A stretch of 64,000 nucleotides of DNA from Pseudomonadota bacterium (GTDB lineage Bacteria > Desulfobacterota > Binatia > Binatales > Binataceae): contig JAJPHI010000009.1 of the NCBI GenBank assembly GCA_021325355.1, positions 387,144 to 451,143 on the forward strand. Reading direction: 5' to 3'. Made by a program: the position numbers and the translations under genes. Shown here in pieces: positions 573 through 52,958 of the stretch (positions are counted from its first letter, which is position 1; each line of letters starts with the position of its first letter). The notes below the pieces were generated by a model. That model was not told where the DNA came from. It did no database searches and saw nothing but the letters and a program-made list of their open reading frames with translations.

Positions 573-1010
573 ATGTTGAACCATGCCCAATTTGCGTGGA
601 GTGCTCGCAGAAAACTCCTCTTCACTCTTGCTGTAGCAGTCTTCGCTCCGCCAGCGGTTTATGCCGGCAATGCGATTAATCAGGCAACCACCGGCCAACC
701 CGGCACGGCCGTGGTGATTTCGAACACCGCGCCGACGGAGCTGCTGGCGGCAAACCGCGCGCGCTACGGCTGGACGATTTACTGTGCCGGCACCGCCGGT
801 GGTATCGCGGCGATGGTGATGCCGGGCGATTCGGCCGGCGACCCGGCAAGCCCCGCCCCATCCCAGACCGTCGGTTTTCCGGTTCCCGCCAATGTCCTGA
901 TGACCGACCAGGATTTTCCGCTGCGCGGCCTTGACGCGATCCATCAACGTCTCGATGCGGAAGCGCAGGGGAGCGCACCGGTCAGTTGCTACACCTGGGA
1001 GGAGCAATAA
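573..1010 (+). CDS. Small secreted hypothetical protein (N-terminal hydrophobic signal-like segment), first gene of a tightly packed plus-strand operon
   Basis: ORF begins just after a local AT-rich stretch (about 480-570). The N-terminus 'RKLLFTLAVAVFAPPAVYAG' resembles a signal peptide. It ends 3 nt before the next gene. No recognisable family. Confidence 0.4.
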   Translation: MLNHAQFAWSARRKLLFTLAVAVFAPPAVYAGNAINQATTGQPGTAVVISNTAPTELLAANRARYGWTIYCAGTAGGIAAMVMPGDSAGDPASPAPSQTVGFPVPANVLMTDQDFPLRGLDAIHQRLDAEAQGSAPVSCYTWEEQ

Positions 1011-1013
1011 GCG

Positions 1014-2702: not shown

Positions 2703-2742
2703 GCAGTTCGCGGCCGCGACTGCGTCCAAGGATACCCGACCA

Positions 2743-4092
2743 ATGGAACTCTCCGGATTCCGCTGCGCCGACCCGCGACTCAGCTCCGCGCACCGCGCGC
2801 GGCCACGTCATTCGAAGTTCGCCCTGCGATGGCTCCGACGCGGACTGCTGACCGCGCTGCTCGTCGTCGCCGTGGTTCTGCCGCTTCGCGCCGCCTCAGG
2901 ACCGCTCACCTCGGCCCAGGGATGGGTGGCGGCGCTGATCGATTCGCCTGCCGCCTTTTACACCCCAAATCCCGCCTTCACTCCCGGCTTCGAGATGGGG
3001 CTGTACCAGGGCACGAATGTGCTGGCCACCGCTTCCGCGCCGCACGACGCCAAACTTAAAAGCGCCGCTGCGGCGGTCGTCCCCTTATGTCAGAACGGCA
3101 ACCCGCCGAGCGGCTCCTGCGCCGAGGGCGGAGCCGGCAAAATCGGCGTCGCCCATATCGGCTTCTCGGTTTCGATCCAACAGACCTGCACCGGACCGAA
3201 CCATGCCAACGGTCTGGTCGCGCCGACTCCCTCAGCCTGCGCGACCGGCACCGCCGACTATACGCTCTACCAGGATCAGCAGGGCGCGACGCCCACCATC
3301 GCGCCGACGGTCTACTTTGCCGATTGTGCGCAGCCCTCGGCCACGATGGATAAATGGGCGGCGCAGATAGGTATCAACTCTCAAACCACCGCTCCCTATT
3401 GGTACAACTGCGTAAATACCGTTCTGCCCAACGAGGGGCTGGTCGCCAACCAGATTGAGGCGGTCACGATCGAAGCTGCCGCCGGTTCACCGTCCGCGGG
3501 CTTTTCCTCGATGTCCTCGTTGTCCCATACGCCGTGCCAGGCCGGTGACGAGGCCACCGTCGCTGCCTGCTATGGGGAACAACAGACCGGCATCGTCCTG
3601 CGCGAGCTTTTTCAGCAGTGGCCGCATCTGAAGATCGCCTACCTGTATTCGCGCGCCTACGGCGGATGCGCGGCGGCGGGCACGCTCAATCCCGAACCCT
3701 ATGCCTACGAAGACGGCTTTACCGTCCAGTTCCTGATTCAGGCGCAGATTCGCCAGGCCGACAACAACGGTCCGCAAGACAGCGAGGCCGGCAATCTTGC
3801 CTACAGCGTCGTTCCGGCACTCTCGTGGGGCGGCTATCAATGGGCCAACGGCACGACGCCCAACAGTGAAGGCCTGTCGTGGCCCTGCACTGACTTCACC
3901 ACGACTGACCAGACGCATTTCGTCAACGGCGGTTACCAGAACTCGGCAAATACCATGATCAATTTCTTTCTCGGCACGAGCGTCACCGGCGCCAACCATC
4001 AGGCGTACACCGGATGGATCCGCCCGAATGGCGCGACGCCCGCTCCCACCGCCTCCTCCACTCCCACCATGCTCTTCTCGTTTCACCGCTAA
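2743..4092 (+). CDS. Secreted Cys-rich hypothetical protein
   Basis: Hydrophobic signal-like segment 'LLTALLVVAVVLPLRAASGP'. 449 aa with many Cys, Trp and Tyr, and no recognisable catalytic motif. Start codon uncertain. Confidence 0.5.
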   Translation: MELSGFRCADPRLSSAHRARPRHSKFALRWLRRGLLTALLVVAVVLPLRAASGPLTSAQGWVAALIDSPAAFYTPNPAFTPGFEMGLYQGTNVLATASAPHDAKLKSAAAAVVPLCQNGNPPSGSCAEGGAGKIGVAHIGFSVSIQQTCTGPNHANGLVAPTPSACATGTADYTLYQDQQGATPTIAPTVYFADCAQPSATMDKWAAQIGINSQTTAPYWYNCVNTVLPNEGLVANQIEAVTIEAAAGSPSAGFSSMSSLSHTPCQAGDEATVAACYGEQQTGIVLRELFQQWPHLKIAYLYSRAYGGCAAAGTLNPEPYAYEDGFTVQFLIQAQIRQADNNGPQDSEAGNLAYSVVPALSWGGYQWANGTTPNSEGLSWPCTDFTTTDQTHFVNGGYQNSANTMINFFLGTSVTGANHQAYTGWIRPNGATPAPTASSTPTMLFSFHR

Positions 4093-4096
4093 GCCG

Positions 4097-4900
4097 ATGA
4101 AAATCAGCGCTGTCATAGTCTCAGTCGATTACGGCGATATCCTCGTCTGGACCCTGCGGGAAAATCGTCACGTCTTCGACCGGCTCGTCGTCGTCACCAG
4201 CCCGCGCGATTTCCGTACCCGTCGCGTCTGCGAGCACTTCCATATCCGGTGCGAAGTCACCAGTGCCTTTTATGCGGGCGCATCGGGGGTGGATCTGCTC
4301 GCCTTCAACAAGGCGGCCGGCATCAACCACGGCCTGCGTCAGTTGATGCAGGAGCGCCCCCCGGACCGCGACGATTGGTACGTCCATCTCGACGCCGATA
4401 TCGTCCTGCCGCCGCGCACTCGCGAACTGCTGCACAAGGTCGATCCCGACCCCGCGTGTATCTACGGCATCGACCGCATGATGTGCACGTCGTTCGATGA
4501 CTATCTGCGTTATGCGGCGCTGCCGGCGCCGCAGCATCAGAACCAGATCTTCGTCCGCGCCGACGCCTTTCCGCTCGGCGTGCGCGTGGCGCGGCTTGAT
4601 CCCGACGGCAGCGGCTATGTCCCGATCGGTTTCTTCCAGATGTGGAACCCGGTCGGCTCGGGCGTGACTGACTATCCGCAATATCACCAGTCAGCCGCCC
4701 GCTCGGACATGCTGTTTGCACTCCGATGGCCCCGGCGCCGCCGACACCTCATCCCCGAGATTGTCGCGACCCATCTCGAGTCCGAAGTCTCGCCGATGGG
4801 CCAGAACTGGAACGGCCGCCGCAGTTGTTCTTTCGGTCCGCCGCCCGCGTCCTCGATTCTCGAACCAAATCCGCAACCTTATGAATGTGAGAGGCAATAA
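4097..4900 (+). CDS. GT-A fold glycosyltransferase-like protein (family-2-like)
   Basis: Internal ATG giving N-terminus 'MKISAVIVSVDYGD', typical of the GT2 N-terminal strand. DXD-like 'HLDADIV' motif. The ORF track 5' extension (from 4028) is Pro-rich and probably untranslated. Confidence 0.5.
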   Translation: MKISAVIVSVDYGDILVWTLRENRHVFDRLVVVTSPRDFRTRRVCEHFHIRCEVTSAFYAGASGVDLLAFNKAAGINHGLRQLMQERPPDRDDWYVHLDADIVLPPRTRELLHKVDPDPACIYGIDRMMCTSFDDYLRYAALPAPQHQNQIFVRADAFPLGVRVARLDPDGSGYVPIGFFQMWNPVGSGVTDYPQYHQSAARSDMLFALRWPRRRRHLIPEIVATHLESEVSPMGQNWNGRRSCSFGPPPASSILEPNPQPYECERQ

Positions 4901-4903
4901 AGC

Positions 4904-5680
4904 ATGATTGCAGGAAAACTCGGCAAACGTCCCGCCCGTCGCGACTTCCGCACGCTGCGTATCAGCAACTATCTGCGCCGTCTGCCCCCGCCGCGTCCCG
5001 ATGGCGTCGACTGGGGTGCGGCCGTGCGCAAGGATCACCTCGCGCTCGGGATGCTCGGCAACGACCAGTACGGCGATTGCTTCTGGGCGATGGCCGCGCA
5101 TGCCTTCATCACCTGGAACGCCAACGCCGGTCGCAAGGTTGAATTCACCACCGATGCGGTACTCAATGCGTACTGCGCCTACCTCGGTATCCCGCGCAGC
5201 CAGCTCAATGATCAGACCGACAACGGCACCGTGATGCTCGACGGGCTCAAGTTCCTGCGCACCACCGGACTCGTTGACGCCTCCGGCAAGGTGCACAAAA
5301 TCGGCGCCTTCGCCGCCGTCGATGCCAAAAACGAGACGGAGGTCAGGGTCGCGCTCGATCTCTTCGGCGAGCTGCTCATCGGCGTCGAATTCCCCGGAGC
5401 GTGGATGAACACCAACGTCTGGGACGTCACCTCGGACGCTGTCGCAGGCGGGCATGCGATCAACGGCATTGCCCGCGACCTCAAGGGTGCGCCGGCGGTC
5501 GGTATCAATATCGATACCTGGGGCGCGGACAACTATTGGCTCACCTGGCCGGCCCTCGCGCAGTTCTGTGACGAGCTTTACGTCACCGTGCCGACGGACT
5601 GGATCGAGGACAACGGTCGCGCGCCGAGCGGACTCGATCTGAAGGCGCTGCTCGCGGACCTTGCCGCGGTCACCGCCTGA
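4904..5680 (+). CDS. Papain-like (C1-like) cysteine peptidase, cytoplasmic (no signal peptide)
   Basis: 'QYGDCFWAMAAHA' resembles the Q...C-x-W-A catalytic Cys region of papain. 'GGHAINGIA' is a candidate catalytic His. 'NIDTWGADNYW' resembles the papain N-S-W-G oxyanion/Asn region. Starts 4 nt after the previous stop. Confidence 0.55.
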   Translation: MIAGKLGKRPARRDFRTLRISNYLRRLPPPRPDGVDWGAAVRKDHLALGMLGNDQYGDCFWAMAAHAFITWNANAGRKVEFTTDAVLNAYCAYLGIPRSQLNDQTDNGTVMLDGLKFLRTTGLVDASGKVHKIGAFAAVDAKNETEVRVALDLFGELLIGVEFPGAWMNTNVWDVTSDAVAGGHAINGIARDLKGAPAVGINIDTWGADNYWLTWPALAQFCDELYVTVPTDWIEDNGRAPSGLDLKALLADLAAVTA

Positions 5681-5688
5681 CTCGGCAT

Positions 5689-5892
5689 ATGAAAGCACTT
5701 GCTTCGCTGTTGAGTGACCTCAAGACCAGTTGCGCCGGTATCGCCCTCATCGCGATCACCGTGCTCTTTCTCACCGGCCGTCTCGGGGTCAATCAGTATC
5801 TCGCCGCGGTGGGCGCGCTCGCCGGCGGCGGCCTCGTGATGGCGAAAGATGCTTCGCCGGTAACGCCGGAGCAGAAGAAGGAACTGAAATGA
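5689..5892 (+). CDS. Small single-pass membrane protein (holin-like or i-spanin-like topology)
   Basis: 67 aa with one strongly hydrophobic segment 'GIALIAITVLFLTG' and a charged C-terminus 'PEQKKELK'. Its stop overlaps the next start (ATGA at 5889-5892). Confidence 0.5.
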   Translation: MKALASLLSDLKTSCAGIALIAITVLFLTGRLGVNQYLAAVGALAGGGLVMAKDASPVTPEQKKELK

Positions 5893-6281
5893 ATACAGCT
5901 CTTGCCAAATTGACTATCGCGTCGCTGCTCTGCCTGACGCTGCTGTCGCTCGGATGCGCCACCCAAAACGCCGGCATCACCTGGCCCATCAGCATCGGTG
6001 GTCAGCAAATCCTGGTTAACTCCGCGCCGGTCCTGACCATGCAGGCCGAGCAATCCTGCAACGCCCAGGCGCAGGTCGAGTACAATCTGAACGTCGCCGC
6101 CTGCGAGGGCAAGCTCGCCCCGCTCTTCCCGGTGCAGTTCGCCGGCGTCAACGCGCAGGCGCAGGTTCTCTGCCAGGCCTTCGGCTACACCAACTCGAGC
6201 GGCCAGCTTGCCGTGCCCGAGACCATCCAGTTGGGCGGATGCGCCACCGCGGCCAGCACGGTCAAACGCCGCACGTCCTAA
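5889..6281 (+). CDS. Lipoprotein (signal peptide with lipobox 'LSLGC')
   Basis: Internal ATG at 5889 gives 'MNTALAKLTIASLLCLTLLSLGCATQNAG', a classic lipoprotein signal plus Cys. Gln/Ala-rich mature part with paired Cys. Translationally coupled to the upstream small TM gene. Confidence 0.55.
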   Translation: MNTALAKLTIASLLCLTLLSLGCATQNAGITWPISIGGQQILVNSAPVLTMQAEQSCNAQAQVEYNLNVAACEGKLAPLFPVQFAGVNAQAQVLCQAFGYTNSSGQLAVPETIQLGGCATAASTVKRRTS

Positions 6282-6320: not shown

Positions 6321-8195
6321 TCACGCCGGAGCAGCCGCGAACTGATCGTTGCCTTCACCGCGCAGGATCGCATCGAAACGCAGCCCGCCGAGATACTGGC
6401 GGCGCGCCTCTTCGTCGGTGATCACGCTCCGGCGCACGTCGCGGCGGCGGATCTGCCACACTCCCCCGACCATCGGATGGCGCCCCTGGCGATAGCTGAA
6501 GAAGTAATACGACCATTGCCGCCACAGCGCGCGGCGCGCTTCGGCCGAAAGGCCCCGACCGCTCGCGACCGACAGGATCATGCTCAGCAGCCGGCCCAGT
6601 GAATAGAAGCCGGTGAAAGCGTCGCGGTACGCCTGATACCAGGTGTAGGTATCCATCTTCTCGTGCCGCAGCGTCACATGCTGCGAGTCCAGATTATTGA
6701 AGTCCCAGTCGATTATCTGGCCCTCTTTCGCGTATCGCACCTGATCTTCGGTGCCGGGCAGCGGCGTCATGATAAAAAACGACACCATGTCGAAGCCGAT
6801 CTTGCGCAGCATCTGCGCCGCGACCCGCCCGCAGTCCGGACCGTCAAACGGGAATCCCAGCATATAGCCGGCATGCACTGACACGCCCACCCGATGCCAG
6901 TTTTCGACGACTCGGCGGTACTTGTGCAGCACCCGCCGCTTGGCATCTTCGAGGCTCATCCGATGCTGCCGGTCTTCGGTGTTCTGATATTTCGTGGCGT
7001 GATTCAGATTGTCCGGATTGAGCGACTCGATACCGACGAACGCCTGGTAACAGCCCGCCCGCGCCGCGAGCTCCGTAAAGCGCCGGCTTCGGCGATGCTT
7101 GGCCGTCTCGGTTTCGCCCGGTTCCAGGTTCGCGAAGCACGACGCATCGACGTCCACCTGCATCATGAACGAGAAGCGCGGAAACTCCTTGCGTACTTCA
7201 ATCAGTCCCGTGAGAATTTCTTCCCATCGCGGACTGCGGAAAAAATCGTCGTCCACCAAAAACAGCGACTCGATCCCATGATGGCGCGCGGCGTCGCGCA
7301 CCCAGTTGACCACCGCCCCCGGTTCGCGCGATCGCATCGTGCGCCCCATCACATTCTTCACGCTGCAGTAAGAGCAGGTGAACGGACAGCCGCGCGACGT
7401 ATCCAGCGTGGTCATCGTCGTCGTGAAGAACCGCGACAGATAGCGATCATCGATCGTCGGTAACTGCGCGTCGGTTATCACCGGCACGATGATGTCGTCC
7501 TGGCCGGTCTTGGCGCGAATCCCATCGACCACCGCGTAGTTCAGTTTGAGTTCACCGCGCAGAAAATCCTCGATCAGCTCGGCCCAGATCGTTTCGGCCT
7601 CACCGACGATGGTCGTGATACCGCAACTGTTCAGGAATTCGCGCGACTGCGGATAACCGCTGACGTGAAATCCGCCCATCATGGTCGGGATCTGCTTCGC
7701 CACGAACTGCAGCGCCAAATCACGACCGCGCGCATATTGGTTCGACTGCACTCCCGCCAGTCCCACCAATAATTCCACCCCGTCCTCGATCGCTTTTTCT
7801 TTGATCGCGACGATCGTCTCCGGCGTCACCACGCCGTCGCACAACTCGTCCCAGATGACCGTCTCGAGCACCACGTTGCGCTCGGCGCCGCGTTGCTGAT
7901 TGAGCGTATCGTTAAGCGCCTTCAGCACCGTCAGCGTGTTATTCGGCTGCACGCCGTAGCGAAAGAATTGAACATAGCCCTCTTCGTCGTAACGCGAGGG
8001 CTTGATGAAATACACGCGGACCGTCCGGCACGGTTCGGCCCGCAGCGCATCGCTGCCCGCCGCCGATGCCGGCCCCGTCAATTGCAACGGTCGCTTGCTG
8101 TCGCGATGGGTATAACGTTCGTGACCGATCATGAACCAGAGCAGAGTTCCGCAACCGATCAGAACCAGGCTCAGGATAGTAAACGCCAGAATCAT
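6321..8195 (-). CDS. B12-binding domain radical SAM protein (class B) with N-terminal transmembrane anchor
   Basis: CxxxCxxC 'RGCPFTCSYCS' radical-SAM motif preceded by a cobalamin-binding-like N-domain. The first about 22 aa, 'MILAFTILSLVLIGCGTLLWFMI', are hydrophobic. Confidence 0.8.
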   Translation of the reverse strand: MILAFTILSLVLIGCGTLLWFMIGHERYTHRDSKRPLQLTGPASAAGSDALRAEPCRTVRVYFIKPSRYDEEGYVQFFRYGVQPNNTLTVLKALNDTLNQQRGAERNVVLETVIWDELCDGVVTPETIVAIKEKAIEDGVELLVGLAGVQSNQYARGRDLALQFVAKQIPTMMGGFHVSGYPQSREFLNSCGITTIVGEAETIWAELIEDFLRGELKLNYAVVDGIRAKTGQDDIIVPVITDAQLPTIDDRYLSRFFTTTMTTLDTSRGCPFTCSYCSVKNVMGRTMRSREPGAVVNWVRDAARHHGIESLFLVDDDFFRSPRWEEILTGLIEVRKEFPRFSFMMQVDVDASCFANLEPGETETAKHRRSRRFTELAARAGCYQAFVGIESLNPDNLNHATKYQNTEDRQHRMSLEDAKRRVLHKYRRVVENWHRVGVSVHAGYMLGFPFDGPDCGRVAAQMLRKIGFDMVSFFIMTPLPGTEDQVRYAKEGQIIDWDFNNLDSQHVTLRHEKMDTYTWYQAYRDAFTGFYSLGRLLSMILSVASGRGLSAEARRALWRQWSYYFFSYRQGRHPMVGGVWQIRRRDVRRSVITDEEARRQYLGGLRFDAILRGEGNDQFAAAPA

Positions 8196-8307: not shown

Positions 8308-10683
8308 TTAACGATACATCTCGATAAGCGAAATCAGGCCCAGGTCGCGATATCGCTCTATGAGATATCCTTTGATGTCCTTTACGCTTGAGAGTTGCGA
8401 TACATCGTGCGCGATATGCCGCGCCGTCTGATAGCTCGACTCCTGAACCAATTTTCGGACCACCGGAATGAACAGCGGACTCAAGCTCAGTTGATCGAGT
8501 CCCATCCCCACCAGCAGCAGCGTCGCCAGCGGATCGCTGGCCATCTCCCCGCACAGACAGACTTCCTTGCCGGCGCCCCGCGCCACGTTGACCACTTCCG
8601 CAATCGCCGACAACACCGCCGGATGGAGCGGCTCGTAAAGATGCGCCACCTTGGGATTATTGCGATCGGCCGCGAGCAGATACTGCACCAGGTCGTTGGT
8701 GCCGATCGAAAAGAAATCCACCTCGCGGATAAGCCGCGGCGCCAGCCAGACCGCCGACGGCACCTCGACCATGATTCCCACCTCGATCGCCGGATTGTGC
8801 TCGAGCCCCTCCTTGAACAACTCGGCCTGGGCTTCGAGCAGAAGTTCGCGCGCGCGATGCAGTTCCTCGAGACTCGAAATCATCGGAAACAACACGCGCA
8901 CCTTGCGATGGGCCGCGGCGCGCAGGATGGCGCGCAACTGCACCTTGAAGATCCCCGCCAATTCCAGTGAGATCCGAATCGATCGCCAGCCGAGAAACGG
9001 ATTCTCCTCACGCGGCACGCGCAGATATGGCGGATACTTGTCCGCCCCGATATCCAGCGTGCGAATCGTCACCGTTCGCTCCCCTACCGCCTCGAGCATC
9101 CGCGTGTACAGCTCGATCTGCTGGTTTTCGTCGGGGAAATCCTCGTACGTCAGAAAGGAAAATTCCGAGCGCAGGAGCCCGATACCTTCCGCTCCGTAGC
9201 GCAGGGCCAGCCGCACGTCCGGCAGCAGCGCGATATTGGCCAGCATCTGTACCCGATGGCCGTCGCGGGTCTCCGCCGGCGCCTGCAACCCCGCCATCAG
9301 TTCGCGGCGGAAGGCCTCGTAGCGCTTGTGCTGCAACTGATACTCGCGCTCGACCTCCGCTGACGGATTGATGTAGAGCACCCCGGAGTTGCCGTCGAGC
9401 TCGAGCGCATCGCCTTCCGAAACCGCCTCCATCAGCCGCTCGACACCCACGATCGTCGGCAGTTCGAAGGCGCGCGCCAGAATCGCCGCGTGCGAGGTCA
9501 CGCCGCCCGACTGCAGCGCAATCCCCGCCAGATTCTCATGCGACACCAGCGCCATCTGCGACAGCGTCAGCTCCTCCGCCACCAGGATGGTCTTGCGGCT
9601 GAACGATCCGATACCCTCTTCCTGGCGCAGATGGCGCAAAACGCGATGGCCGACGTCGCGGAAATCCGTGGCGCGTTCGCGCAAATAGGCGTCGGCCACG
9701 GCCAGCATCTGGGCGCTCAGTTCGTCGATTACCCGGAACAGCGAACTCTCCGCCGCATATCCCTCCGCGATCGTATCGCGCACCCGCGAGATAAACTCCT
9801 CGTCCTCGAGGATCAGCCGATGCGCGTCGAAGATCTGCAGGTCGTTCTCGGCCATCAACGGCGCCATCCGCGCTTTCAACGCCGCCAGTTCACCGCGCGA
9901 GCGCACCAGCGCCTCTTCGAACCGTTTAAGCTCGACCTTCGGATCCCGCGCCCGCAGATTGCGATCAATCGTGCTCAGGAACGTGCCGACAACGTGCGCG
10001 ACCCCGTGAGCGAAGCCCGGCGCCGCCGGCAACCCGACCAGCCGCGGATGGCGCATCTTGATTGGCGGCGCGACCCGCGTCGCCCCCGCCACCCGCTCGT
10101 AACCCTTGAGCTGACGGTTCGCCTCGATCATCCGCCGCCGATACTCGTCGCGCTCCTTCTCCTTGGTGGCCAGCGTCTCGCGCAGTTGAAACTGCGACAT
10201 GATCGCCGCCAACTGCGCCGCCGCCGTCCGCAACAGGCGGATCGCCACCGTGCCGAACTTGCGTCGCCGCAGCGTCTGCACCGTCAGCACGCCAAGCGGT
10301 TTCTGCCGCGTCTCGGCGATCGGCACCGCGAGCAGCGTGTGATAGCGCTCCTCGCCGGTTTCCGGGAAATACTTGTACCGCGGATGGCTCATCGCGTCTT
10401 CGACGACCACCGGCTCGCCCCGCTCGATCACCAGACCCACCAGACCTTCGTTGACGCGGATCGACACGCGGCCGACCGATTCGCGATTGAGGCCCACCGT
10501 CGCGCGCAGCACCAGCCGTTCGCGCTGCGGATCGAACAGGTAGATCGAACAAACCTCGACCTCCATGCGGGCAGCGATCGTGGTGACGACGCGGTCGAGA
10601 GTCTGACGCAGGTCGGCCGAAGGATCGCCGCTAATCGCCGAAATGTCCTCGATCAGCGCGAGGCGGTCTCGATTGGCGGCCAT
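8308..10683 (-). CDS. ptsP: Phosphoenolpyruvate-protein phosphotransferase with N-terminal GAF domain (EI-Ntr type)
   Basis: N-terminal GAF-like region and PEP-utilising-enzyme motifs, including active-site His region 'GGVTSHAAILARAFELPTIVGV'. Length 791 aa fits PtsP. Confidence 0.85.
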   Translation of the reverse strand: MAANRDRLALIEDISAISGDPSADLRQTLDRVVTTIAARMEVEVCSIYLFDPQRERLVLRATVGLNRESVGRVSIRVNEGLVGLVIERGEPVVVEDAMSHPRYKYFPETGEERYHTLLAVPIAETRQKPLGVLTVQTLRRRKFGTVAIRLLRTAAAQLAAIMSQFQLRETLATKEKERDEYRRRMIEANRQLKGYERVAGATRVAPPIKMRHPRLVGLPAAPGFAHGVAHVVGTFLSTIDRNLRARDPKVELKRFEEALVRSRGELAALKARMAPLMAENDLQIFDAHRLILEDEEFISRVRDTIAEGYAAESSLFRVIDELSAQMLAVADAYLRERATDFRDVGHRVLRHLRQEEGIGSFSRKTILVAEELTLSQMALVSHENLAGIALQSGGVTSHAAILARAFELPTIVGVERLMEAVSEGDALELDGNSGVLYINPSAEVEREYQLQHKRYEAFRRELMAGLQAPAETRDGHRVQMLANIALLPDVRLALRYGAEGIGLLRSEFSFLTYEDFPDENQQIELYTRMLEAVGERTVTIRTLDIGADKYPPYLRVPREENPFLGWRSIRISLELAGIFKVQLRAILRAAAHRKVRVLFPMISSLEELHRARELLLEAQAELFKEGLEHNPAIEVGIMVEVPSAVWLAPRLIREVDFFSIGTNDLVQYLLAADRNNPKVAHLYEPLHPAVLSAIAEVVNVARGAGKEVCLCGEMASDPLATLLLVGMGLDQLSLSPLFIPVVRKLVQESSYQTARHIAHDVSQLSSVKDIKGYLIERYRDLGLISLIEMYR

Positions 10684-12296: not shown

Positions 12297-12584
12297 CTAG
12301 TAATTGACGATCTCGAGCACCTCTTCGCCGAGCGGCGCGAGCCCCAATCCTTCGATAAAGCGCACCACCTCGCGCAGCGCGGCATCGACGAAATCGCGAT
12401 CGGTGCCGGCCTGGCAGATGCCCAGTTCGGCCCGCTGCCACATCTCGTGGCCCGCCGACTCGACGATCGAGACATTGAATTTGTTCCGCACCCGATCCTT
12501 GATCGCGCGCAGCACCTGGCGTTTGCCCTTCAGCGAATGGTTCTCCGGCAGAAAAAGCGTCAGCCGCAACACCCCGACGACCAT
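12297..12584 (-). CDS. DUF503 family protein (YlxP-like)
   Basis: 95-aa protein 'MVVGVLRLTLFLPENHSLKGKRQ' between infB and rbfA, the typical position of the DUF503 gene. Confidence 0.8.
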   Translation of the reverse strand: MVVGVLRLTLFLPENHSLKGKRQVLRAIKDRVRNKFNVSIVESAGHEMWQRAELGICQAGTDRDFVDAALREVVRFIEGLGLAPLGEEVLEIVNY

Positions 12585-22086: not shown

Positions 22087-23112
22087 ATGGCCCTGGAACG
22101 CGAAAAGCATATCGCTGAGCGCGCCCTGCTCACGATGGATGACGTTCAGATCATCGATCTCTATCGACGCATGGTGCTCATCCGTCGTTTCGAGGAAAAG
22201 ACCGCCGAGATGTACTCGCGCGGCAAGATTACCGGCTTCTGCCATCTCTATGCCGGCGAGGAAGCGGTCGCGGTCGGCGCTATCGCCGCGCTCTACGACA
22301 AGGACTACGTCGTTTCGACCTACCGTGAACACGGTCACTGCCTCGCCAAGGGCGCGGCGCCGCGCGCGGTCATGGCGGAACTGTTCGGCAAGGCGACCGG
22401 CATCTCGCGCGGTCATGGCGGCTCGATGCATCTGTTCGACGCCAACCTGCGCTTCATGGGCGGCTATGCGATCGTCGGCGGCGGCCTGCCGATCGCCGCC
22501 GGTCTTGGTCTCGCGGTCAAGTACCGCGAGGAGCCCGAGGTGGTGTGCTGTTTCTTCGGCGACGGCGCGCTGCCGCAGGGCGCCTTCCACGAAAGTCTCA
22601 ATCTCGCTTCGCTGTGGAAGCTGCCGGTCGTGTTCATCTGCGAAAATAACTTCTACGGCATGGGCACGATGGTGCAGAACGCCATCTGCCAGGAGGAGCT
22701 CTACCGCTTCGCCGAACCCTACAAGATGCCGGGCGTGCGGGTTGACGGCATGAACGTGCTCGAGGTTTACCAGGCGACGGTGGAGGCCGCCGCCCGCGCG
22801 CGCGAAGGCGACGGCCCCTCGCTGATCGAAGCCGTGACGTATCGCTTCCGCGGCCACTCGATGTCCGATCCGGCCGAGTATCGGTCGCGCCGCGAGGAGC
22901 GGATCTGGCAGGAGCGCGACCCGATCAAGCAACTGCGGCGCAAGCTGTTGCAGGATCGGCGCGCCGACGAAAATCAGTTAACCACAGTCGAAACCGAGGT
23001 TAACGCGATTATCGAGGATGCGGTCAGATTCGCCGAGGAGAGTCCCGAACCGGCCCTCGACACCCTCGGCAAGCTGGTTTACGTCGAGGACGACGGCACC
23101 GCGCAGTCCTGA
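22087..23112 (+). CDS. pdhA: Pyruvate/2-oxoacid dehydrogenase E1 component alpha subunit (TPP-dependent)
   Basis: 'YRRMVLIRRFEEKTAEMYSRGKITGFCHLYAGEEAVAVG' and TPP-binding 'GDGALPQGAFHESLNLASLWKLPVVFICENN'. Confidence 0.9.
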   Translation: MALEREKHIAERALLTMDDVQIIDLYRRMVLIRRFEEKTAEMYSRGKITGFCHLYAGEEAVAVGAIAALYDKDYVVSTYREHGHCLAKGAAPRAVMAELFGKATGISRGHGGSMHLFDANLRFMGGYAIVGGGLPIAAGLGLAVKYREEPEVVCCFFGDGALPQGAFHESLNLASLWKLPVVFICENNFYGMGTMVQNAICQEELYRFAEPYKMPGVRVDGMNVLEVYQATVEAAARAREGDGPSLIEAVTYRFRGHSMSDPAEYRSRREERIWQERDPIKQLRRKLLQDRRADENQLTTVETEVNAIIEDAVRFAEESPEPALDTLGKLVYVEDDGTAQS

Positions 23113-23207: not shown

Positions 23208-24179
23208 ATGGCTGAAATCACTTATCGGGAAGCGCTCAATCAGGCGTTGCGCGAGGAGCTCGACCACGACGAGCGGGTCTTTATCATGGGCGAAGAGGTC
23301 GGCTACTTCGGCGGCGCCTTCAAGGTCACCGACGGTCTGCTCGCCACCTTCGGCGAAAAGCGCGTGCGCGACACGCCGATCTCCGAACTGACCATCGTCG
23401 GCGCCGGGGTGGGCGCGGCGATGGGCGGACTCAAGCCCATCGTCGAGCTGATGACCATCAATTTCGGCCTGCTGGCCTTCGATCAGATCGTCAACTCGGC
23501 GGCGAAGATTCATTACATGTTCGGCGGCAATGCCAAGGTGCCGATGGTGATACGGGCGCCGCAGGGCGCGGGTCATCAGCTCGGCGCGCAGCACAGTCAG
23601 AGTCTCGAGGCCTACTTCCTGCATTGCCCCGGGCTGCGCGTGGTCATCCCGGCAACCCCGGCCGACGCCAAGGGTCTGCTCAAAAGCTGCGTCCGCCAGG
23701 ACGATCCCGTGATGTTTCTCGAACACGAGTCGCTCTACGGCGTCAAGGGCGAGGTTCCCGACGGTGAGCATTTCGTGCCGCTGGGCCAAGCCAACGTCAT
23801 GCGCGAAGGCAAGGACGTCACGCTCATCTCCTACTCGAAATGCGTCTATGACGCGATCGCCGCCGCCGAAGCCCTCGAAAATGAGGGCATCGATGCCGAG
23901 GTGATCGATTTGCGCACGCTTAATCCGCTCGATATCGGCACGGTGGTCGAATCGGTGAAAAAGACCGCCCGGGCGATCATGGTGTACGAAGGCTGGCGGA
24001 CGGGCGGCGCCGGCGCCGAAATCGCCGCGCAGATCTACGAGGCCGCCTTCGACCATCTGGACGCGCCGGTCGAACGCGTCGCCACGCTGGATACGCCGAT
24101 GCCGTACAATGCGCGCCTCGAACGCGCGGCGCTGCCCAGCGCCGCCCAGATCGTGCAGGCGGCCGAGCGTCTGATGTAA
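23208..24179 (+). CDS. pdhB: Pyruvate/2-oxoacid dehydrogenase E1 component beta subunit
   Basis: 'ITYREALNQALREELDHDERVFIMGEEVGYFGGAFKVT' transketolase-like E1 beta signature. Confidence 0.9.
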   Translation: MAEITYREALNQALREELDHDERVFIMGEEVGYFGGAFKVTDGLLATFGEKRVRDTPISELTIVGAGVGAAMGGLKPIVELMTINFGLLAFDQIVNSAAKIHYMFGGNAKVPMVIRAPQGAGHQLGAQHSQSLEAYFLHCPGLRVVIPATPADAKGLLKSCVRQDDPVMFLEHESLYGVKGEVPDGEHFVPLGQANVMREGKDVTLISYSKCVYDAIAAAEALENEGIDAEVIDLRTLNPLDIGTVVESVKKTARAIMVYEGWRTGGAGAEIAAQIYEAAFDHLDAPVERVATLDTPMPYNARLERAALPSAAQIVQAAERLM

Positions 24180-24226
24180 AAAGTGACCGGGGCCGTCCCG
24201 CAGGCGGCCCACCCTAAGGACCGTCC

Positions 24227-25681
24227 ATGAGCAGTGAAATCACGATGCCCAAGCTTTCCGACACCATGTAGGAAGGCAAGATTCTTCGATGGTTGAAGCG
24301 TCCGGGCGACCAGGTGCATCACGGCGATGCGCTGGCCGAGGTCGAGACCGACAAGGCCGACATGGTGATGGAGTCCTTCGACGACGGCGTGCTGGAAGAA
24401 ATTCGTCTCAAGGAAGGCGAGTCCGCGCCGGTTGGCGCCGTGATCGCCGTGCTGCGACCGCTCAACGGCGAGAGCGCCGCGACCGCGCCGCGCGCCGAAG
24501 CCCCTGCCGAAGCTCCGGCGGACGCCGCGACGGCTCCGACCCTAAGTTCCGCGCGGCCCGAACGGGTAACGACGCTCGAACCGTCCCGCCGACGACGCCG
24601 CAGTGAGGCTGCGTCGGCGTCGCGGGGCCGCCAGGAGGTCGATGCGAACCCTGCCGCCGACCAGCAGGGCGCGGAGGACGATGGCGCCGAGACGGCGCCT
24701 GCCCGTCCGGTGGTCCATCCGGCGATGAGCGCGCATCCGTCGGCCGCACCGACCGCTATCGTCGCGCCGCCGGCGCCCAGTCAAGCGCCGGCGATGGAGG
24801 TTGCGGTCGTGACCGACGGCAGCAAGCTCCGCGCTTCGCCGCTCGCGCGGCGCGCCGCCGAAGAGGCCGGCATCGACCTCGCCGCGATCCGCGGGACCGG
24901 ACCCGAGGGGCGCATCACCAAGCGCGATGTCGATAACTTTATCCGCGAGCAGCAGCTTTTCCGTTTCCGCCGCCTGGTCGCGCCGCGCGAGGGACTACCC
25001 GGCACGCGCGAAGAGCTCTCCAAGATGCGCAAGACGATTGCCAACCGGATGGCGCAATCGAAGCGCGAAATCCCGCATTTCTATGTCACCGTCGAAGTGG
25101 ATATGGAGGAGGTGGTGCGGCTCAAGAAGTCGCTCGAAACCACCGAGCTCTTCGATCAGAACATCACCTACAACGACATCATCATCAAGGCGACCGCGCT
25201 CGCCCTCGCTCGCTATACGCGCATGAACGCGAGCTACCAGGACGAGGGCATCGTCATCTACCCGAACATCAATATCGGGATGGCGGTGGCGGTCGAGGAC
25301 GGCCTCATCGTTCCGGTGATCCACAATTGCGAGCGGCTCACTCTGCCGCAGATCGCTGAGGCGGCGCGGCGGCTGGTCGGCAAGGCCGCGCGTGGCGGCT
25401 TCAGCGGCGACGATCTCTCGGGGGCCACCTTCACGATCTCGAACATGGGGATGCTCGGCGTCGAGCACTTTGCCGCGGTGATCGTGCCGCCGCAGGCGGC
25501 GATTCTCGCCGTGAGCGCGGTCAAGGATCGTCCGGTCGTGCGCGACGGTCAGGTGGTGGTCGGCAAAACCATGATGATCACCGTCGCCTGTGACCATCGC
25601 ATCATCGACGGCGTGGTCGGCGCGCGTTTCGTCAACGAGATCAAACGCTTCCTCGAAAACCCGGCGAGTCTGCTGGTCTAA
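24227..25681 (+). CDS. Dihydrolipoamide acetyltransferase E2 (lipoyl domain + PSBD + catalytic domain), reading frame interrupted by an in-frame TAG at 24269-24271
   Basis: ATG at 24227 with AAGGA RBS gives 'MSSEITMPKLSDTM*EGKILRWLKRPGDQ...ETDKA'. Lipoyl-lysine motif DKA, PSBD 'SPLARRAAEEAGIDLAAIRGTGPEGRITKRDV', and catalytic 'DHRIIDG' present. The ORF track calls only the TTG-initiated remainder (24293-25681). Confidence 0.8.
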
Positions 25682-25707: not shown

Positions 25708-27117
25708 TTGCCTAACCAGCGCTACGATTTAATCGTTATCGGTTCGGGGCCGGGTGGCTACGTGGCGGCAATCCGCGCGAGCCAGCTCAAGATGCGGGTC
25801 GCCGTGATCGAGCGCGATCGGCCGGGCGGCGTCTGCCTCAACTGGGGCTGTATCCCGAGCAAGGCGCTGCTCAACTCGGCCGAAGCGATGGACACGATTC
25901 GCACCGCGGCGCAGGAGCACGGTATCGCCACGGGTGAGGTGCGGGTCGATTTCAAACGCGTGATTGCCCGCAGCCGCGAGGCCGCCGACAAGCTGTCGAA
26001 GGGCGTGCGCTTCCTTTTGCGCAAGAACAAGGTCGATTACTTCGAGGCGCACGCGACGCTCGCCGGACCCCATGCCGTGGCGCTCGCTGCCTCGCCCGGC
26101 AAACCGAATCCGCCGGCGGCGACGCTCGAGGCCGAGCGCATTCTTATCGCAGCCGGGTCGGGCGAACGGCTGTTTCCGGGCATGACTATCGGCAACGGCG
26201 TGATGACCAGCCGCGAAGCGCTGGTTCACGACACCCTGCCCGCGAGTATCGTGATCATCGGCGCGGGCGCGATCGGCCTCGAATTCGGCTATTTCTACAG
26301 CGCCTTCGGCACCGCGGTCACAATCGTTGAACTGGAAAAGCAGATGCTGCCGGGTTTCGATGCCGAGATCGCCGAAGAGTTGCGCAAGGCCTTCCTCAAG
26401 CGCGGCGCCACCGTGATGCTCGGTCATGGCTACAAGTCGATGACGCGCAAGGGCGGCGGCTGGCGGGTCGCGCTCGACGCCGCCGGCACCGCCGCATCCG
26501 TCGAAGCCGAATGCGTACTGGTGGCGGTCGGCCGCGCTCCCCTCAGCACCGACCTCGGGCTCGAGCGGGTCGGCGTCGAGGTCGAGCGCGGCTATATCAA
26601 AATCGACGACTCCTTCCGGACGACCTGCCCGAGTATCTATGCGATAGGCGACGTCGCGCGGATGCCGCTGCTCGCGCACAAGGCCTCGGCCGAAGGCGTC
26701 GCCGCGGTCGAGATCATGGCGGGCGCGCGCGAACCGGGCTTCGACCTGCTCGCGATCCCGGGATGCATCTACTGCGAGCCGGAGGTCGCGACCGTCGGCC
26801 TCTCCGAGGCGCAGGCGCGCGAGCGCGGTATCGACGTGACGGTCGGCAAGTTTCCGTTTCGCGCCAACGGCAAGGCAGTTGCCGTGAATCAGACCGAGGG
26901 CTTCGTCAAACTGGTCGCGAGCAAGCAATACGGCGAGGTGCTCGGCTGCCAGATCATCGGCCATCACGCGACCGACCTCATCTCGGAGGTGGTGCTTGGC
27001 CGCACGCTCGAAACCACAACCGCCGAAATCGGCCGCAGTATCCATCCGCATCCGACGCTTTCCGAGGCGATCATGGAAGCGGCGCTGTCGGCCGAAGGCG
27101 AGGCTATCAATTTCTAG
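25708..27117 (+). CDS. lpdA: Dihydrolipoyl dehydrogenase (E3)
   Basis: FAD motif 'YDLIVIGSGPGGYVAAIRA', redox disulfide 'GGVCLNWGCIPSK', C-terminal His-Glu dimer-interface motif. Ends with TAG. Confidence 0.9.
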   Translation: MPNQRYDLIVIGSGPGGYVAAIRASQLKMRVAVIERDRPGGVCLNWGCIPSKALLNSAEAMDTIRTAAQEHGIATGEVRVDFKRVIARSREAADKLSKGVRFLLRKNKVDYFEAHATLAGPHAVALAASPGKPNPPAATLEAERILIAAGSGERLFPGMTIGNGVMTSREALVHDTLPASIVIIGAGAIGLEFGYFYSAFGTAVTIVELEKQMLPGFDAEIAEELRKAFLKRGATVMLGHGYKSMTRKGGGWRVALDAAGTAASVEAECVLVAVGRAPLSTDLGLERVGVEVERGYIKIDDSFRTTCPSIYAIGDVARMPLLAHKASAEGVAAVEIMAGAREPGFDLLAIPGCIYCEPEVATVGLSEAQARERGIDVTVGKFPFRANGKAVAVNQTEGFVKLVASKQYGEVLGCQIIGHHATDLISEVVLGRTLETTTAEIGRSIHPHPTLSEAIMEAALSAEGEAINF

Positions 27118-27122: not shown

Positions 27123-27896
27123 ATGAACGAAGCGATGGTCAGAACGCCTGCTGCCACGGCGGCGTCGAGTCCCAGCGGACAGCCGCGCGAGCCCTCCCGG
27201 GGGCGGACGCTCCGCGTCGCCCGACTCGGCGTGCTCGACTATGCGGCGGCGCTCGATCGGCAGTACGCGCTGGTCGAGGCGCGGCTGCGCGAGCGGGTTC
27301 CCGACACGCTGCTGCTGCTCGAGCATCCGCACGTCTATACGCTCGGGCGCGGCGCCGACGAGCGCTTCATCCTCGACCGCCGTGGCAACGTTCCGCTTCA
27401 TCGGGTGTCGCGCGGCGGCCAGGTGACCTATCACGGCCCGGGACAGCTCGTCGGCTATCCTATTCTTCGGCTGGAGGGCGCCGCGCGCGACGTTTTGCGC
27501 TACCTGCGCAATCTTGAACAGGTCATGATCGACGCGCTGGCGGACTGCGGGATTAGCGCCGGGCGCCGCACGGGTCTGACCGGCGTCTGGGTCGGCGACG
27601 CCAAGATTGCCTCGATCGGCGTCGGCCTCCGCCGCTGGGTGACGCTCCACGGCTTTGCGCTCAACGTCAGCACCGACCTGCGCTACTTCGACCGTATCGT
27701 GCCCTGCGGTATCGAGGGCTGCCGGATGACGTCGATTGCCGCGCTGGGTCGGTCCGCGATTTCGGTGGAAGCCTTCGCGGCGATGATCACCCGCGCCTTC
27801 GCTGCGGTTTTCGGCTACGATCGCCTCGAGGAAGTCGGCGCCGAGGATCTTTCGCGAACCCTGCAGGACGCATCGGCGGCGCCCGCGGCCGCATGA
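27123..27896 (+). CDS. lipB: Octanoyltransferase (lipoyl(octanoyl) transferase)
   Basis: 'LLLLEHPHVYTLGRGADERFI...RGGQVTYHGPGQLVGYPIL...KIASIGVGLRRWVTLHGFALNV' LipB signature. It is only the C-terminal part of the long ORF called at 26511-27896. Confidence 0.85.
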   Translation: MNEAMVRTPAATAASSPSGQPREPSRGRTLRVARLGVLDYAAALDRQYALVEARLRERVPDTLLLLEHPHVYTLGRGADERFILDRRGNVPLHRVSRGGQVTYHGPGQLVGYPILRLEGAARDVLRYLRNLEQVMIDALADCGISAGRRTGLTGVWVGDAKIASIGVGLRRWVTLHGFALNVSTDLRYFDRIVPCGIEGCRMTSIAALGRSAISVEAFAAMITRAFAAVFGYDRLEEVGAEDLSRTLQDASAAPAAA

Positions 27897-27899
27897 TCG

Positions 27900-28763
27900 A
27901 TGAACGAACGTCGCCATCCTGATTGGATCAAAGTCCGGGCGCCGGTCTCGCCGGAGTACTTTCGCACCCGCGCGACGCTGGCCGAGCTGAAGCTGCATAC
28001 GGTCTGCCAGGAGGCCTGCTGTCCCAATATCGGCGAATGCTTCGGTCATCGCACGGCCACCTTCATGCTGATGGGCGACGTCTGCACCCGCAATTGTCCG
28101 TATTGTGCCGTGGCGCATGGCAAGGTGCGGCCGCTCGATGCCGACGAGCCCCGGCGGATCGCCGAGGCGGTGGCCCGCCTGGGACTTCAGCATGTGGTTG
28201 TCACGTCGGTGGATCGCGATGACCTGCCGGACGGCGGCGCGGCGCACTTCGCGGCGACCGCTCAGGCGATTAAGGCGGCGATGCCGAGCGCGCGCATCGA
28301 GGTGCTCGTACCGGATTTCAAAGGCGCCCTGCCGAGCGTCGAAACCGTCGTCAACGCGCCGGTGGATATCTACAATCACAATATCGAGACGGTGCCGAGC
28401 CTCTACCGGCGATGCCGTCCGGGCGGCCGCTACGAAGTCTCGCTCGCGGTCCTCGATCACGCCAAACGCTATGCGCGGACGCAGGGACGGGCGACCCTGA
28501 CGAAGGCCGGCCTGATGCTCGGACTGGGCGAAGCGCGGGACGAGCTGCTGCAGGTGCTGCGCGACTTGCGCGCCGTCGAGTGCGATATCCTGACGCTCGG
28601 GCAGTATCTCCGGCCGAGCCGCGATCATCTGCCGGTGGTCCGGTACGTTCATCCCGACGAGTTCGCCGAGCTGCGGGCGACGGCGCTCGCGCTCGGCTTC
28701 CGCCACGTCGAATCCGGACCGCTGGTGCGCAGTTCCTATCACGCCTGGTCCCAGGTACCGTGA
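27900..28763 (+). CDS. lipA: Lipoyl synthase
   Basis: Two Cys clusters, 'CQEACCPNIGEC' and 'CTRNCPYCAV' (radical SAM CxxxCxxC). Confidence 0.9.
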   Translation: MNERRHPDWIKVRAPVSPEYFRTRATLAELKLHTVCQEACCPNIGECFGHRTATFMLMGDVCTRNCPYCAVAHGKVRPLDADEPRRIAEAVARLGLQHVVVTSVDRDDLPDGGAAHFAATAQAIKAAMPSARIEVLVPDFKGALPSVETVVNAPVDIYNHNIETVPSLYRRCRPGGRYEVSLAVLDHAKRYARTQGRATLTKAGLMLGLGEARDELLQVLRDLRAVECDILTLGQYLRPSRDHLPVVRYVHPDEFAELRATALALGFRHVESGPLVRSSYHAWSQVP

Positions 28764-32976: not shown

Positions 32977-34239
32977 ATGCGGACGGTTATCGCGGCGGGG
33001 CTGGTGCTTATCGCGGTAAGCATGATGCCGGCCGCGCGCGCGGCGAGTCTCCGTCAGGCTCACCGGCTGCGCAGTCCGAAAGCACCGACGCCGCCGGCCG
33101 TGCCGCTCAACCAAATCCGCGTCTTCGGGAATCTGCCGGCGCCGTTCGCGGTGGCCGGCTCCGCCGCCGATCTCGTCGCCCTGCATAGTGGCGCCGAGCT
33201 CTACGCCTTCAACGAGCACGCCAAAACGCAGCCCGCCAGCCTCGCCAAGATCATGACCTTCTATCTGACCCTCGAGGCGCTCAAGCAGGGCCGTATCACG
33301 CTCGACACGCAGATGCCGGTCAGCGAAACGGCGTGGCGCCTGTCGCTCAATGACACGGTGTCGCGCATGTTCCTGCAGGTCGGTCAGAAGGTCGCGGTGC
33401 GCGACCTGCTCTACGGCTTGATGGTCTCGTCGGGAAATGACGCCGCGGTCGTGTTGTCCGAATATCTCGCCGGCAGCACCACCGCCTTCGCCGAAGAAAT
33501 GAACAAGAAGGCCGCCGAACTCGGCATGACCGAGACCCATTTCACCAATCCCGACGGTCTGCCGCAGCCCGGCGAGTACACGACAGCGGCCGATATGGTG
33601 AAGCTCGGGCGCGCGCTGCTGGAGAATTTTCCCAACGCGCTCGAATACACTTCGACCAAGGTCTTCACTTTCAAGACGGTCGGCCCGGAAAATCGCCCGG
33701 TGACCATCTCGCAGCGCAACTTCAACACGCTGCTGTTCTATGACTCGCGCGTCAACGGCATCAAGACCGGCCATGTCGACGAGGCCGGCTACCATCTTGT
33801 CGCTTCGGCGCACACCGACGACCTCGAGTTGATTTCCGCGGTCTTCGGCACTTCCAGCATGGAGGCGCGACGCGTCGAGACTGACAAGCTGCTGGAATGG
33901 GCCTTCCAGACCTTCATCACGGTCCATCCCAACTGGCACAAGGCGGCGCCGGCGACCGTCCGCGTCTATGAGGGCGACGTCGATGAAGTGCCGATCGCGC
34001 CGGCCGGCGGCGACGCTTACTTCACCGTTGTCCGCGGACAGGAGGGCCGGATCAAGCTGACCGCGGAGATGAACAAGACGCCGCTGGTGGCGCCGGTCGC
34101 GCAAGGCACCACGGTCGGCCAGCTCACCGTGATGCTCGGGGACAAGCCGCTCTCATCCCAACCGATCGTGACGCAGGCCGCGGTCAAGCCCGGCAGCTAT
34201 CTGCATCAATGGATGGACGCGCTCCGTCTGCGCCTCTAG
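32977..34239 (+). CDS. D-alanyl-D-alanine carboxypeptidase (peptidase S11, PBP5/6-like) with signal peptide
   Basis: Signal peptide 'MRTVIAAGLVLIAVSMMPAARA'. SxxK 'ASLAK', SGN 'SSGND', and a C-terminal beta-sandwich-length extension. Confidence 0.8.
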   Translation: MRTVIAAGLVLIAVSMMPAARAASLRQAHRLRSPKAPTPPAVPLNQIRVFGNLPAPFAVAGSAADLVALHSGAELYAFNEHAKTQPASLAKIMTFYLTLEALKQGRITLDTQMPVSETAWRLSLNDTVSRMFLQVGQKVAVRDLLYGLMVSSGNDAAVVLSEYLAGSTTAFAEEMNKKAAELGMTETHFTNPDGLPQPGEYTTAADMVKLGRALLENFPNALEYTSTKVFTFKTVGPENRPVTISQRNFNTLLFYDSRVNGIKTGHVDEAGYHLVASAHTDDLELISAVFGTSSMEARRVETDKLLEWAFQTFITVHPNWHKAAPATVRVYEGDVDEVPIAPAGGDAYFTVVRGQEGRIKLTAEMNKTPLVAPVAQGTTVGQLTVMLGDKPLSSQPIVTQAAVKPGSYLHQWMDALRLRL

Positions 34240-37009: not shown

Positions 37010-37138
37010 CTAGCGCTTGCCGCGCAAACGCGTCCGGCGCATCCGGCGCTTGCGCGCGCGCACCTGAGTCGGTTCTGTGCGACGCTTCAAACTCAGCTTG
37101 CGGTTGCGGCGGTTACGTGTTTTCGAGGCCGGTGTCAT
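37010..37138 (-). CDS. Candidate 42-aa extremely basic (Arg/Lys-rich) mini-protein, translationally coupled to the upstream carboxypeptidase gene
   Basis: Minus-strand ATG at 37138 overlaps the TGA stop of the S11 peptidase gene (ATGA). It encodes 'MTPASKTRNRRNRKLSLKRRTEPTQVRARKRRMRRTRLRGKR'. Not in the ORF track (under 60 aa). Could be spurious. Confidence 0.25.
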   Translation of the reverse strand: MTPASKTRNRRNRKLSLKRRTEPTQVRARKRRMRRTRLRGKR

Positions 37139-38418
37139 CGCTTCTCCTGCGGATCAATCGTCAGCCGCGGCGCCACCGCGGGCAGCACTGCCGCGGGCGG
37201 CATCGAGGTCGTTCCGCTACTCGGTTCGTGAACGCCGGCCATGCTAGCAGAAGTCGGCGCGCTCGCCGATAGCGGACAGATCGCGTCCACCCGGCTGAGC
37301 ACCTCGCTGCCGTCCAGCACTTCGACGGCGCCGATGGGCTGGCCGTCGCTCAGCGGCCCCTGAACGACCGTCGGGATCTTGTATTCGAGGTGTAAGCGAT
37401 CGATCGCCGACTTGGGCATCACCAGGTCAAGATCGCTTTCCGCGATCGGCTGAATCTCGGGACCCTGCGCGACCTGGACGTGCACCGGCAGGCTCTCGCC
37501 GCGCGTCACCAGGTGAACCTTCTCGAAATTATCGAAGCCCCAGTTCAACAGTCGCGCGCTCTGAATAAATCGTTGCGGATTGGACGGCGCACCCAGCACG
37601 ACCGAGATTAGCCGCATGTCACCGCGCTTCGCCGTCGCCGTCAGATTGAAGCCGGCATGATAGGTGAAGCCGGTCTTGAGCCCGTCGCAGCCGTCGAAAT
37701 GGCCCACCAGATGGTTGGTGTTGTGCAGCATCACGCGGCCACCATCGAAGGGCGCCGTCTGCATCGAGGACCATTGCAGCAGGTTCGTGGTCAGAATCAG
37801 ATGACGCGCGAGAATCGCCAGATCATGCGCGGTGGTGAAATCCACGTCATGCGCGGGGATCGGCGGCAGCCCGTCAACGGTCTCATAATGAGTATTAGCC
37901 ATGCCCAATTCGCGGGCCTTGGCGTTCATCAGGCGCACGCAGCCATCGACCGAACCGCCAACCTTCTCGGCCACGGCGACGGCGGCGTCGTTGGCCGAAC
38001 GAATCAGCGCGGCCTTCATCAACTCACCCAGTGGATAGACGTCGCCCGGATGGAGTCCGAGGCGTGAGCCGCCGGTAAGCGCCGCGCGCATCGACACCCG
38101 CACCGGATCGTTATACGTAGCGCGGCCGGCGCGAATCTGGTCCTCCGCCACCGCGAGAAGCATCATCTTCGCCATCGAGGCCGGCGGCCACGATAAATCG
38201 GGATTAACCGCGAACAGGACCGTTCCCCGGTCGGCGTCCATCAGCAGCGCCGCATGGTAAAGCGGCACCGCCTGTCGCGCATGGGTCCGGCGATGATGCA
38301 GGGGACGTCGGCGCAGGACTGCCCGTGCCGGAGCGATCTGAGACAGCAGCAGCAGTCCCGCCATCGCGAATCGCCAACTCCACCACCATCCACCCCGCCG
38401 TCGCGAAACCTCGGCCAT
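37135..38418 (-). CDS. D-alanyl-D-alanine carboxypeptidase (peptidase S11), second copy
   Basis: Signal peptide, SxxK 'ASMAKMM', 'SANDAAVAVAE' SxN region, 'KTGFT' KTG motif. Confidence 0.8.
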   Translation of the reverse strand: MAEVSRRRGGWWWSWRFAMAGLLLLSQIAPARAVLRRRPLHHRRTHARQAVPLYHAALLMDADRGTVLFAVNPDLSWPPASMAKMMLLAVAEDQIRAGRATYNDPVRVSMRAALTGGSRLGLHPGDVYPLGELMKAALIRSANDAAVAVAEKVGGSVDGCVRLMNAKARELGMANTHYETVDGLPPIPAHDVDFTTAHDLAILARHLILTTNLLQWSSMQTAPFDGGRVMLHNTNHLVGHFDGCDGLKTGFTYHAGFNLTATAKRGDMRLISVVLGAPSNPQRFIQSARLLNWGFDNFEKVHLVTRGESLPVHVQVAQGPEIQPIAESDLDLVMPKSAIDRLHLEYKIPTVVQGPLSDGQPIGAVEVLDGSEVLSRVDAICPLSASAPTSASMAGVHEPSSGTTSMPPAAVLPAVAPRLTIDPQEKR

Positions 38419-52060: not shown

Positions 52061-52101
52061 TCGGATGACCTCTAGCGTGCCTCGTCAATCAGCGTGCCGC
52101 G

Positions 52102-52404
52102 TTACCAGCGCAACAGCTTCAGCTCATCCGCATTGAGCGTCATCCGATTGCGGAACACGGCAATGATGATGCCGAGACCGACGGCGGCCTCGGCCGCCGC
52201 AACGGTGATCGCAAAGAAGACGATCACCTGCCCCTCGGCATTGCCGAGCTGGCGACCAAACGCGACGAAAGCAAGATTGACGGCATTCAGCATCAGTTCG
52301 ATGGACATGAACATGACAATCACGTTGCGGCGCAGCAGCACGCCGGCGACGCCGATCACGAACAACACGGCGCTCAGCACGACGAAGTAGTTAAGCGGCG
52401 TCAT
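52102..52404 (-). CDS. nuoK: NADH-quinone oxidoreductase subunit K
   Basis: 100 aa '[49 protein letters not shown]...'. It is the C-terminal part of the over-extended ORF 52102-53475. Confidence 0.9.
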
Positions 52405-52955: not shown

Positions 52956-52958
52956 CCC

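Follow-up and report, generated by a model that had tools for sequence, protein, structure and literature searches.

A single-base stop codon private to one assembly interrupts the pyruvate dehydrogenase E2 gene of a Candidatus Binataceae contig

Gene content of the locus

Here we describe a stretch of 64,000 nt (hereafter the window) with 57 genes, in which pdhA, pdhB, pdhC, lpd, lipB and lipA lie on the same strand in one operon (Table 1). The E1 alpha gene, pdhA, is called at the same length of 341 aa in all other assemblies. The two lipoylation genes stand directly 3′ of pdhA-pdhB-pdhC-lpd (27123-28763, plus strand), and from this position they appear to share a transcript with the genes of pyruvate dehydrogenase (PDH), the main substrate complex of their enzymes.

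The native start of the E2 gene, pdhC, is the ATG at 24227-24229, in the sequence context ...AAGGAccgtccATGAGCAGTGAAATCACGATGCCCAAGCTTTCCGACACCATGTAGGAAGGCAAG..., and from there the frame translates as MSSEITMPKLSDTM*EGKILRWLK..., with a TAG as codon 15. Beyond this stop the frame is open up to a TAA at 25679-25681, for a total of 484 codons in translation, and the mechanical ORF list gives only the shorter frame from a TTG at 24293. The first-pass annotation had picked out the same ATG with its AAGGA ribosome-binding site, the same TAG at codon 15 and the same recovery of E2 only via the TTG, all of which our own reading bears out; its description of an otherwise intact gene also stands, but the length that it gave, 480 aa, has to be corrected to 484 codons.

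Even the truncated product matches the Pfam family Biotin_lipoyl (E=4e-13), with the match limited to profile positions 21-73 of 73, and residues 4-76 of the intact protein align with full lipoyl domains in the PDB. The lipoyl-lysine, K43, is encoded at 24353-24355 within an ETDKADM motif of the translation. The E3_binding (E=3e-16) and 2-oxoacid_dh (E=3e-83) domains are both present, and the motif CDHRIIDG is found in the catalytic domain. Against the NCBIfam model TIGR01349 the protein scores 391.6 bits, under the equivalog cutoff of 445, and we therefore infer its pyruvate specificity from the neighbouring E1 alpha, E1 beta and E3, all of which exceed the cutoffs of their own models (TIGR03182, NF006667 and TIGR01350).

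In its order of lipoyl, E3-binding and 2-oxoacid_dh domains with DHRIIDG, the window E2 is like the single-lipoyl-domain E2 of the pyruvate dehydrogenase complex (PDC) of alphaproteobacteria and mitochondria, the type of TIGR01349; so is the placement of its gene in an operon with a heterodimeric E1 alpha/beta and E3, and its best relatives in the PDB are mammalian PDC E2 proteins. It is unlike that type in the sub-cutoff score, in its long, low-complexity inter-domain linker and in the TAG that one assembly has at codon 15.

Table 1. Features of the pdhA-lipA operon, with positions in the window
Feature	Position	Strand	Details
pdhA, pyruvate dehydrogenase E1 alpha	22087..23112	+	341 aa; Pfam E1_dh E=8e-97; TIGR03182 452.6 bits (cutoff 393.85)
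pdhB, E1 beta	23208..24179	+	323 aa; Pfam Transket_pyr and Transketolase_C; NF006667 459.4 bits (cutoff 321)
AAGGA ribosome-binding site	24216..24220	+	6 nt 5′ of the native E2 start (direct reading)
pdhC, E2 dihydrolipoyllysine-residue acetyltransferase	24227..25681	+	484 codons, broken at codon 15
In-frame TAG	24269..24271	+	T at 24269 private to one assembly; elsewhere G (GAG, Glu15)
Residual ORF from TTG	24293..25681	+	462 aa; lacks the first 22 residues, in the lipoyl domain
lpd, dihydrolipoyl dehydrogenase E3	25708..27117	+	469 aa; TTG start, TAG stop; TIGR01350 528.8 bits (cutoff 408.8)
lipB, lipoyl(octanoyl) transferase	27123..27896	+	257 aa; TIGR00214 173.9 bits (cutoff 83.55)
lipA, lipoyl synthase	27900..28763	+	287 aa; TIGR00510 372.6 bits (cutoff 310.25)

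Sister assemblies of the same population

Eighteen public contigs bear the exact E1 beta protein of the window, and ten of them were examined as a set of sister assemblies. In each of the ten the gene after pdhB is an intact 484-aa E2 that starts 48 nt past pdhB, the position of ATG 24227, and codon 15 is GAG (...ACCATGGAGGAAGG...). These contigs come from ENA and NCBI (ERZ27279688, ERZ27279670, GCA_037025125 and GCA_037025045), JGI (3300005531, 3300005607 and 3300027706) and Logan (SRR24677561, SRR24677563 and SRR24677566). For seven sister contigs, the base at 24269 is the one and only difference from the window across 3.4-9 kb, and a 98.9%-identical strain (L008) has GAG at codon 15 as well. 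The single G-to-T change from GAG to TAG that had been proposed from the window alone is thus what the comparison finds, the ten near-identical contigs having G and matching the window elsewhere in the gene.

With the window tiled by further locus look-ups, sister contigs cover 62,060 of its 64,000 bases, and at least nine independently assembled contigs (ENA, NCBI, JGI and Logan; at least eight samples) are ~100% identical to it. Over 62,060 nt the window and a 126-kb ENA contig agree at every position except two, 24269 and 61371, and 56 of the 57 encoded proteins are the same in both. At 24269 the window has T and all 11 covering loci have G; the other position, 61371, is a synonymous C/T difference (TAC/TAT) that separates the window from two other assemblies. 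The first base of codon 15 is G in at least 14 contigs from at least eight samples and T in one contig. What the comparison shows is a single-base difference, the T at 24269, confined to one assembly, and a stop without conservation; the uninterrupted frame of a PDH E2 is broken in the window and found in all other assemblies.

By exact-sequence look-up, the public record has the 462-aa TTG-start product on a single contig, 479,103 nt long and from NCBI. The stop therefore belongs to the deposited sequence, and we reject the idea that it is confined to the copy of the window that we analysed. The intact 484-aa E2 is found on at least eight contigs, six of them with the exact protein and the others with two near-identical 484-aa variants, and an identical intact E2 is held in NCBI as HZP45407.1, “Candidatus Binataceae bacterium”. 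Exact look-up returned no recorded product for the other in-frame starts at 24314, 24362, 24365, 24368, 24389, 24440 and 24449, and exact patterns of 35-39 nt matched neither allele in genome and metagenome contig collections, a result that is uninformative on allele frequency.

A lesion in one contig against at least 14 intact ones, and with no further decay, would not amount to an established pseudogene. In having one in-frame stop where the orthologues are intact, and a shorter ORF rescued from a downstream alternative start, the gene resembles the “internal stop” pseudogenes of draft genomes and metagenome-assembled genomes (MAGs); it is unlike them in the lack of further decay and in the absence of the stop from all sister assemblies. 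Because of that absence the stop would be at most very recent, and it may not exist in the organism at all. Comparison of the window with seven sister assemblies revealed no second lesion in the E2 gene or in the operon, and a difference confined to a single assembly, where the population is otherwise identical, is what a sequencing or assembly artefact would show. What makes this codon stand out is that it is the sole internal stop in the 57 genes and that, against an independent assembly, 62 kb contain just one other difference.

Orthologues and conservation of codon 15

Among GTDB species representatives the nearest, with E2 identities of 62-76%, are MAGs under the label Candidatus Binataceae. 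All 24 Binataceae orthologues from other species have MPKLSDTMEEGKI at the site, with GAG or GAA as codon 15, and the N-terminus in the 24 Binataceae-type genomes, MS(S/N/I/T)(E/Q/D)I(T/V)MPKLSDTMEEGKI(L/I)RWLK, begins at the same position as the native ATG. The comparison of orthologues and strains that the first-pass annotation had recommended has hence found a glutamate codon throughout, GAG in the other strains and either codon in the orthologues. Its description of this Glu as conserved in lipoyl domains holds for the 24 Binataceae species but not more widely: Gln or Thr is aligned with position 15 in the lipoyl domains of mammalian PDC E2, and Glu15 is conserved within the Binataceae clade only, not across the E2 family. 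That the conservation is limited to the clade has no bearing on the effect of a stop codon.

Recoding, readthrough and re-initiation

Stop codon use in the 57 window genes is TGA 29, TAA 15 and TAG 13. The TAG group includes lpd (25708-27117), as had been pointed out at the outset in arguing that genome-wide recoding is unlikely, and the other 56 genes are free of internal stops; with 13 of 57 genes ending in TAG, we reject genome-wide recoding of this codon. Conserved or programmed readthrough is also rejected, on the strength of Glu in 24/24 orthologues and 10/10 sister assemblies; no relative has a stop at codon 15, and there is therefore no sign of an evolved bypass. Three options had originally been left side by side, namely error, recent mutation and readthrough, and with no stop in the other assemblies or orthologues the last is effectively excluded as an evolved feature, while the first two remain.

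A real TAG might also be bypassed by a suppressor tRNA, natural readthrough or TAG reassignment, with full-length E2 being made, and this we regard as extremely unlikely. The frame past the TAG is fully intact, yet that is equally expected if the stop is an error or a recent mutation, and nothing specific points to bypass. Against it stand the absence of the stop from every orthologue and sister assembly, the use of TAG to end 13 of the 57 genes, including lpd directly downstream, with no in-frame TAG in the other 56, and the scans of the 64-kb window, in which no tRNA and no Rfam match were found.

Less credible still is a working 462-aa E2, made by ribosomes that stop at a real TAG and re-initiate 22 nt downstream, at the TTG at 24293. 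In favour, this TTG shares the frame of the gene, the GGAAGG at 24271-24276 might work as a weak Shine-Dalgarno sequence, and the product would keep K43 and all later domains; but the 16 nt between that run and the TTG are a long spacing, no relative uses the TTG as a start, and the product lacks residues 1-22, ~27% of the lipoyl-domain profile. The sole lipoyl domain of the 462-aa protein would probably misfold, since in lipoyl domains (for example PDB 1LAB) the N-terminal strands are part of the beta-barrel. Taken together, the two forms of functional bypass, readthrough and re-initiation at the TTG, are very improbable. We place equally little trust in a TAG that is the real majority allele of one local Binataceae population, whose cells cope by drawing enough E2 from low-level amber readthrough or from re-initiation at TTG 24293, or live without a lipoylated PDH E2.

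Consensus error or recent mutation

The other assemblies have private differences of their own, and 8 of the 10 are C:G>A:T transversions (positions 12344, 21347, 21352, 25347, 26485, 35553, 49840 and 53386; loci L051, L003/L039, L002, L040 and L057), the class into which the G>T of the window at 24269 falls. In the sister assemblies this class looks like an unselected noise or error signature, because it is mostly non-synonymous (6 of 8: G>W, P>Q twice, G>C, G>V and R>L), whereas the C/T transitions, one seen in a single assembly (28700) and one common to two (61371), are both synonymous. The C:G>A:T differences are confined to short contigs of less than 12 kb, presumably of low coverage, and several lie no more than ~150 nt from a contig end; the long contigs have none of them across the ~92 kb compared.

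Changes of the C>A/G>T type are a known artefact class of oxidative damage (8-oxoG) in sheared Illumina libraries, where their allele fraction is low (Costello et al. 2013, PMC3616734) and a bias in read orientation is their diagnostic mark. The substitution at 24269 and most of the private differences of the sister assemblies belong to the same class as these artefacts (PMC3616734), but the artefacts, being of low fraction, normally do not become consensus at good coverage.

On balance we judge, if only just, that the TAG is probably a consensus error and not a real allele. This judgement draws on the ten GAG contigs, the two differences in 62,060 nt, the restriction of the truncated product to one contig, the noise-like C:G>A:T class of the sister assemblies and the operon free of other degenerative change, and on purifying selection, which makes nonsense alleles of central genes rare. 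Against an error, the site lies in a 479-kb contig and at least 24 kb from any end, where coverage is probably good and consensus errors rare, and oxidation artefacts of low fraction should rarely win the consensus. By a rough count, the nonsense errors and the real nonsense SNPs to be expected in 62 kb are of similar order, and our preference for error is therefore modest. If the TAG is an error, it would be a wrong base call or consensus in a single deposited contig, assembled from a metagenome, of a Candidatus Binataceae bacterium, and the true pdhC of the organism would be the intact 484-aa gene that all the other assemblies of this near-clonal population have. Ribosomes in the cell would then begin at ATG 24227 and read Glu15 as in all relatives, with no biological mechanism acting at the site.

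A real and very recent nonsense mutation, in a sub-population sampled by one MAG, is a serious contender, to which we nevertheless give less than an even chance. The stop is in the deposited record, on a contig of 479 kb in which consensus errors should be rare, and the synonymous difference from two assemblies at 61371 suggests that the window may represent a slightly distinct genotype. Moreover, G:C>T:A is a genuine oxidative mutation class in cells. Weighing against a mutation, the allele is missing from at least 14 contigs of the same population (at least eight samples), no second lesion is found in the gene or operon, the site falls in a motif invariant across 24 species, and nonsense alleles of a core enzyme are under strong counter-selection.

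Two particular routes to an error were considered and rejected. The change destroys a wild-type NcoI-type CCATGG, but a systematic miscall at a methylation motif is contradicted by 12 other, intact CCATGG sites and by the identity of the window to short-read assemblies in all other respects. An artefact of a contig end does not fit a site that lies inside a 479-kb contig, with at least 24 kb between it and either end of the window.

We suggest that the E2 stop is an ordinary private single-base difference in one MAG, with no new biology: an error in the likeliest case, and in the best case a null allele that has only just arisen. On a practical level this is a matter of data quality, in that anyone reconstructing metabolism from this MAG would be misled into counting PDH E2 as truncated or pseudogenised, while the population plainly has an intact pdhABC-lpd-lipBA operon. 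Were the allele true, translation from the strong native start would stop after 14 residues, pdhC would be null or severely crippled, and polarity may hurt the downstream lpd, lipB and lipA; the lineage would need other routes from pyruvate to acetyl-CoA, or the variant would be transient and deleterious. A real T in the majority would then make a minor case of a fresh null allele of a core enzyme in an uncultured soil bacterium, with no new mechanism, and if such an allele were tolerated it would offer a natural snapshot of a core-metabolism gene at its inactivation in an uncultured phylum.

Other features of the window

Seven co-directional genes at 573-6281 (plus strand; 145, 562, 449, 267, 258, 67 and 130 aa) have no Pfam match on record and form a conserved block of unassigned function, which adjoins a gene for a 624-aa radical-SAM protein (6321-8195, minus strand) and a GAF-domain PEP-utilising (PtsP-like) gene (8308-10683, minus strand). 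The synonymous difference at 61371 lies in a gene for a 697-aa protein (59923-62016, plus strand) with no Pfam family on record. Genes assigned by Pfam to the NADH dehydrogenase membrane subunits nuoH, J, K, L, M and N occupy 47098-54077 on the minus strand, with no nuoI-type gene called between H and J, and the AT skew is strongly positive at 44-54 kb, coinciding with this run of membrane-protein genes. Two paralogous genes for D-Ala-D-Ala carboxypeptidases of the PBP5 type (Peptidase_S11) lie ~3 kb apart, at 32977-34239 (plus strand) and 37135-38418 (minus strand).
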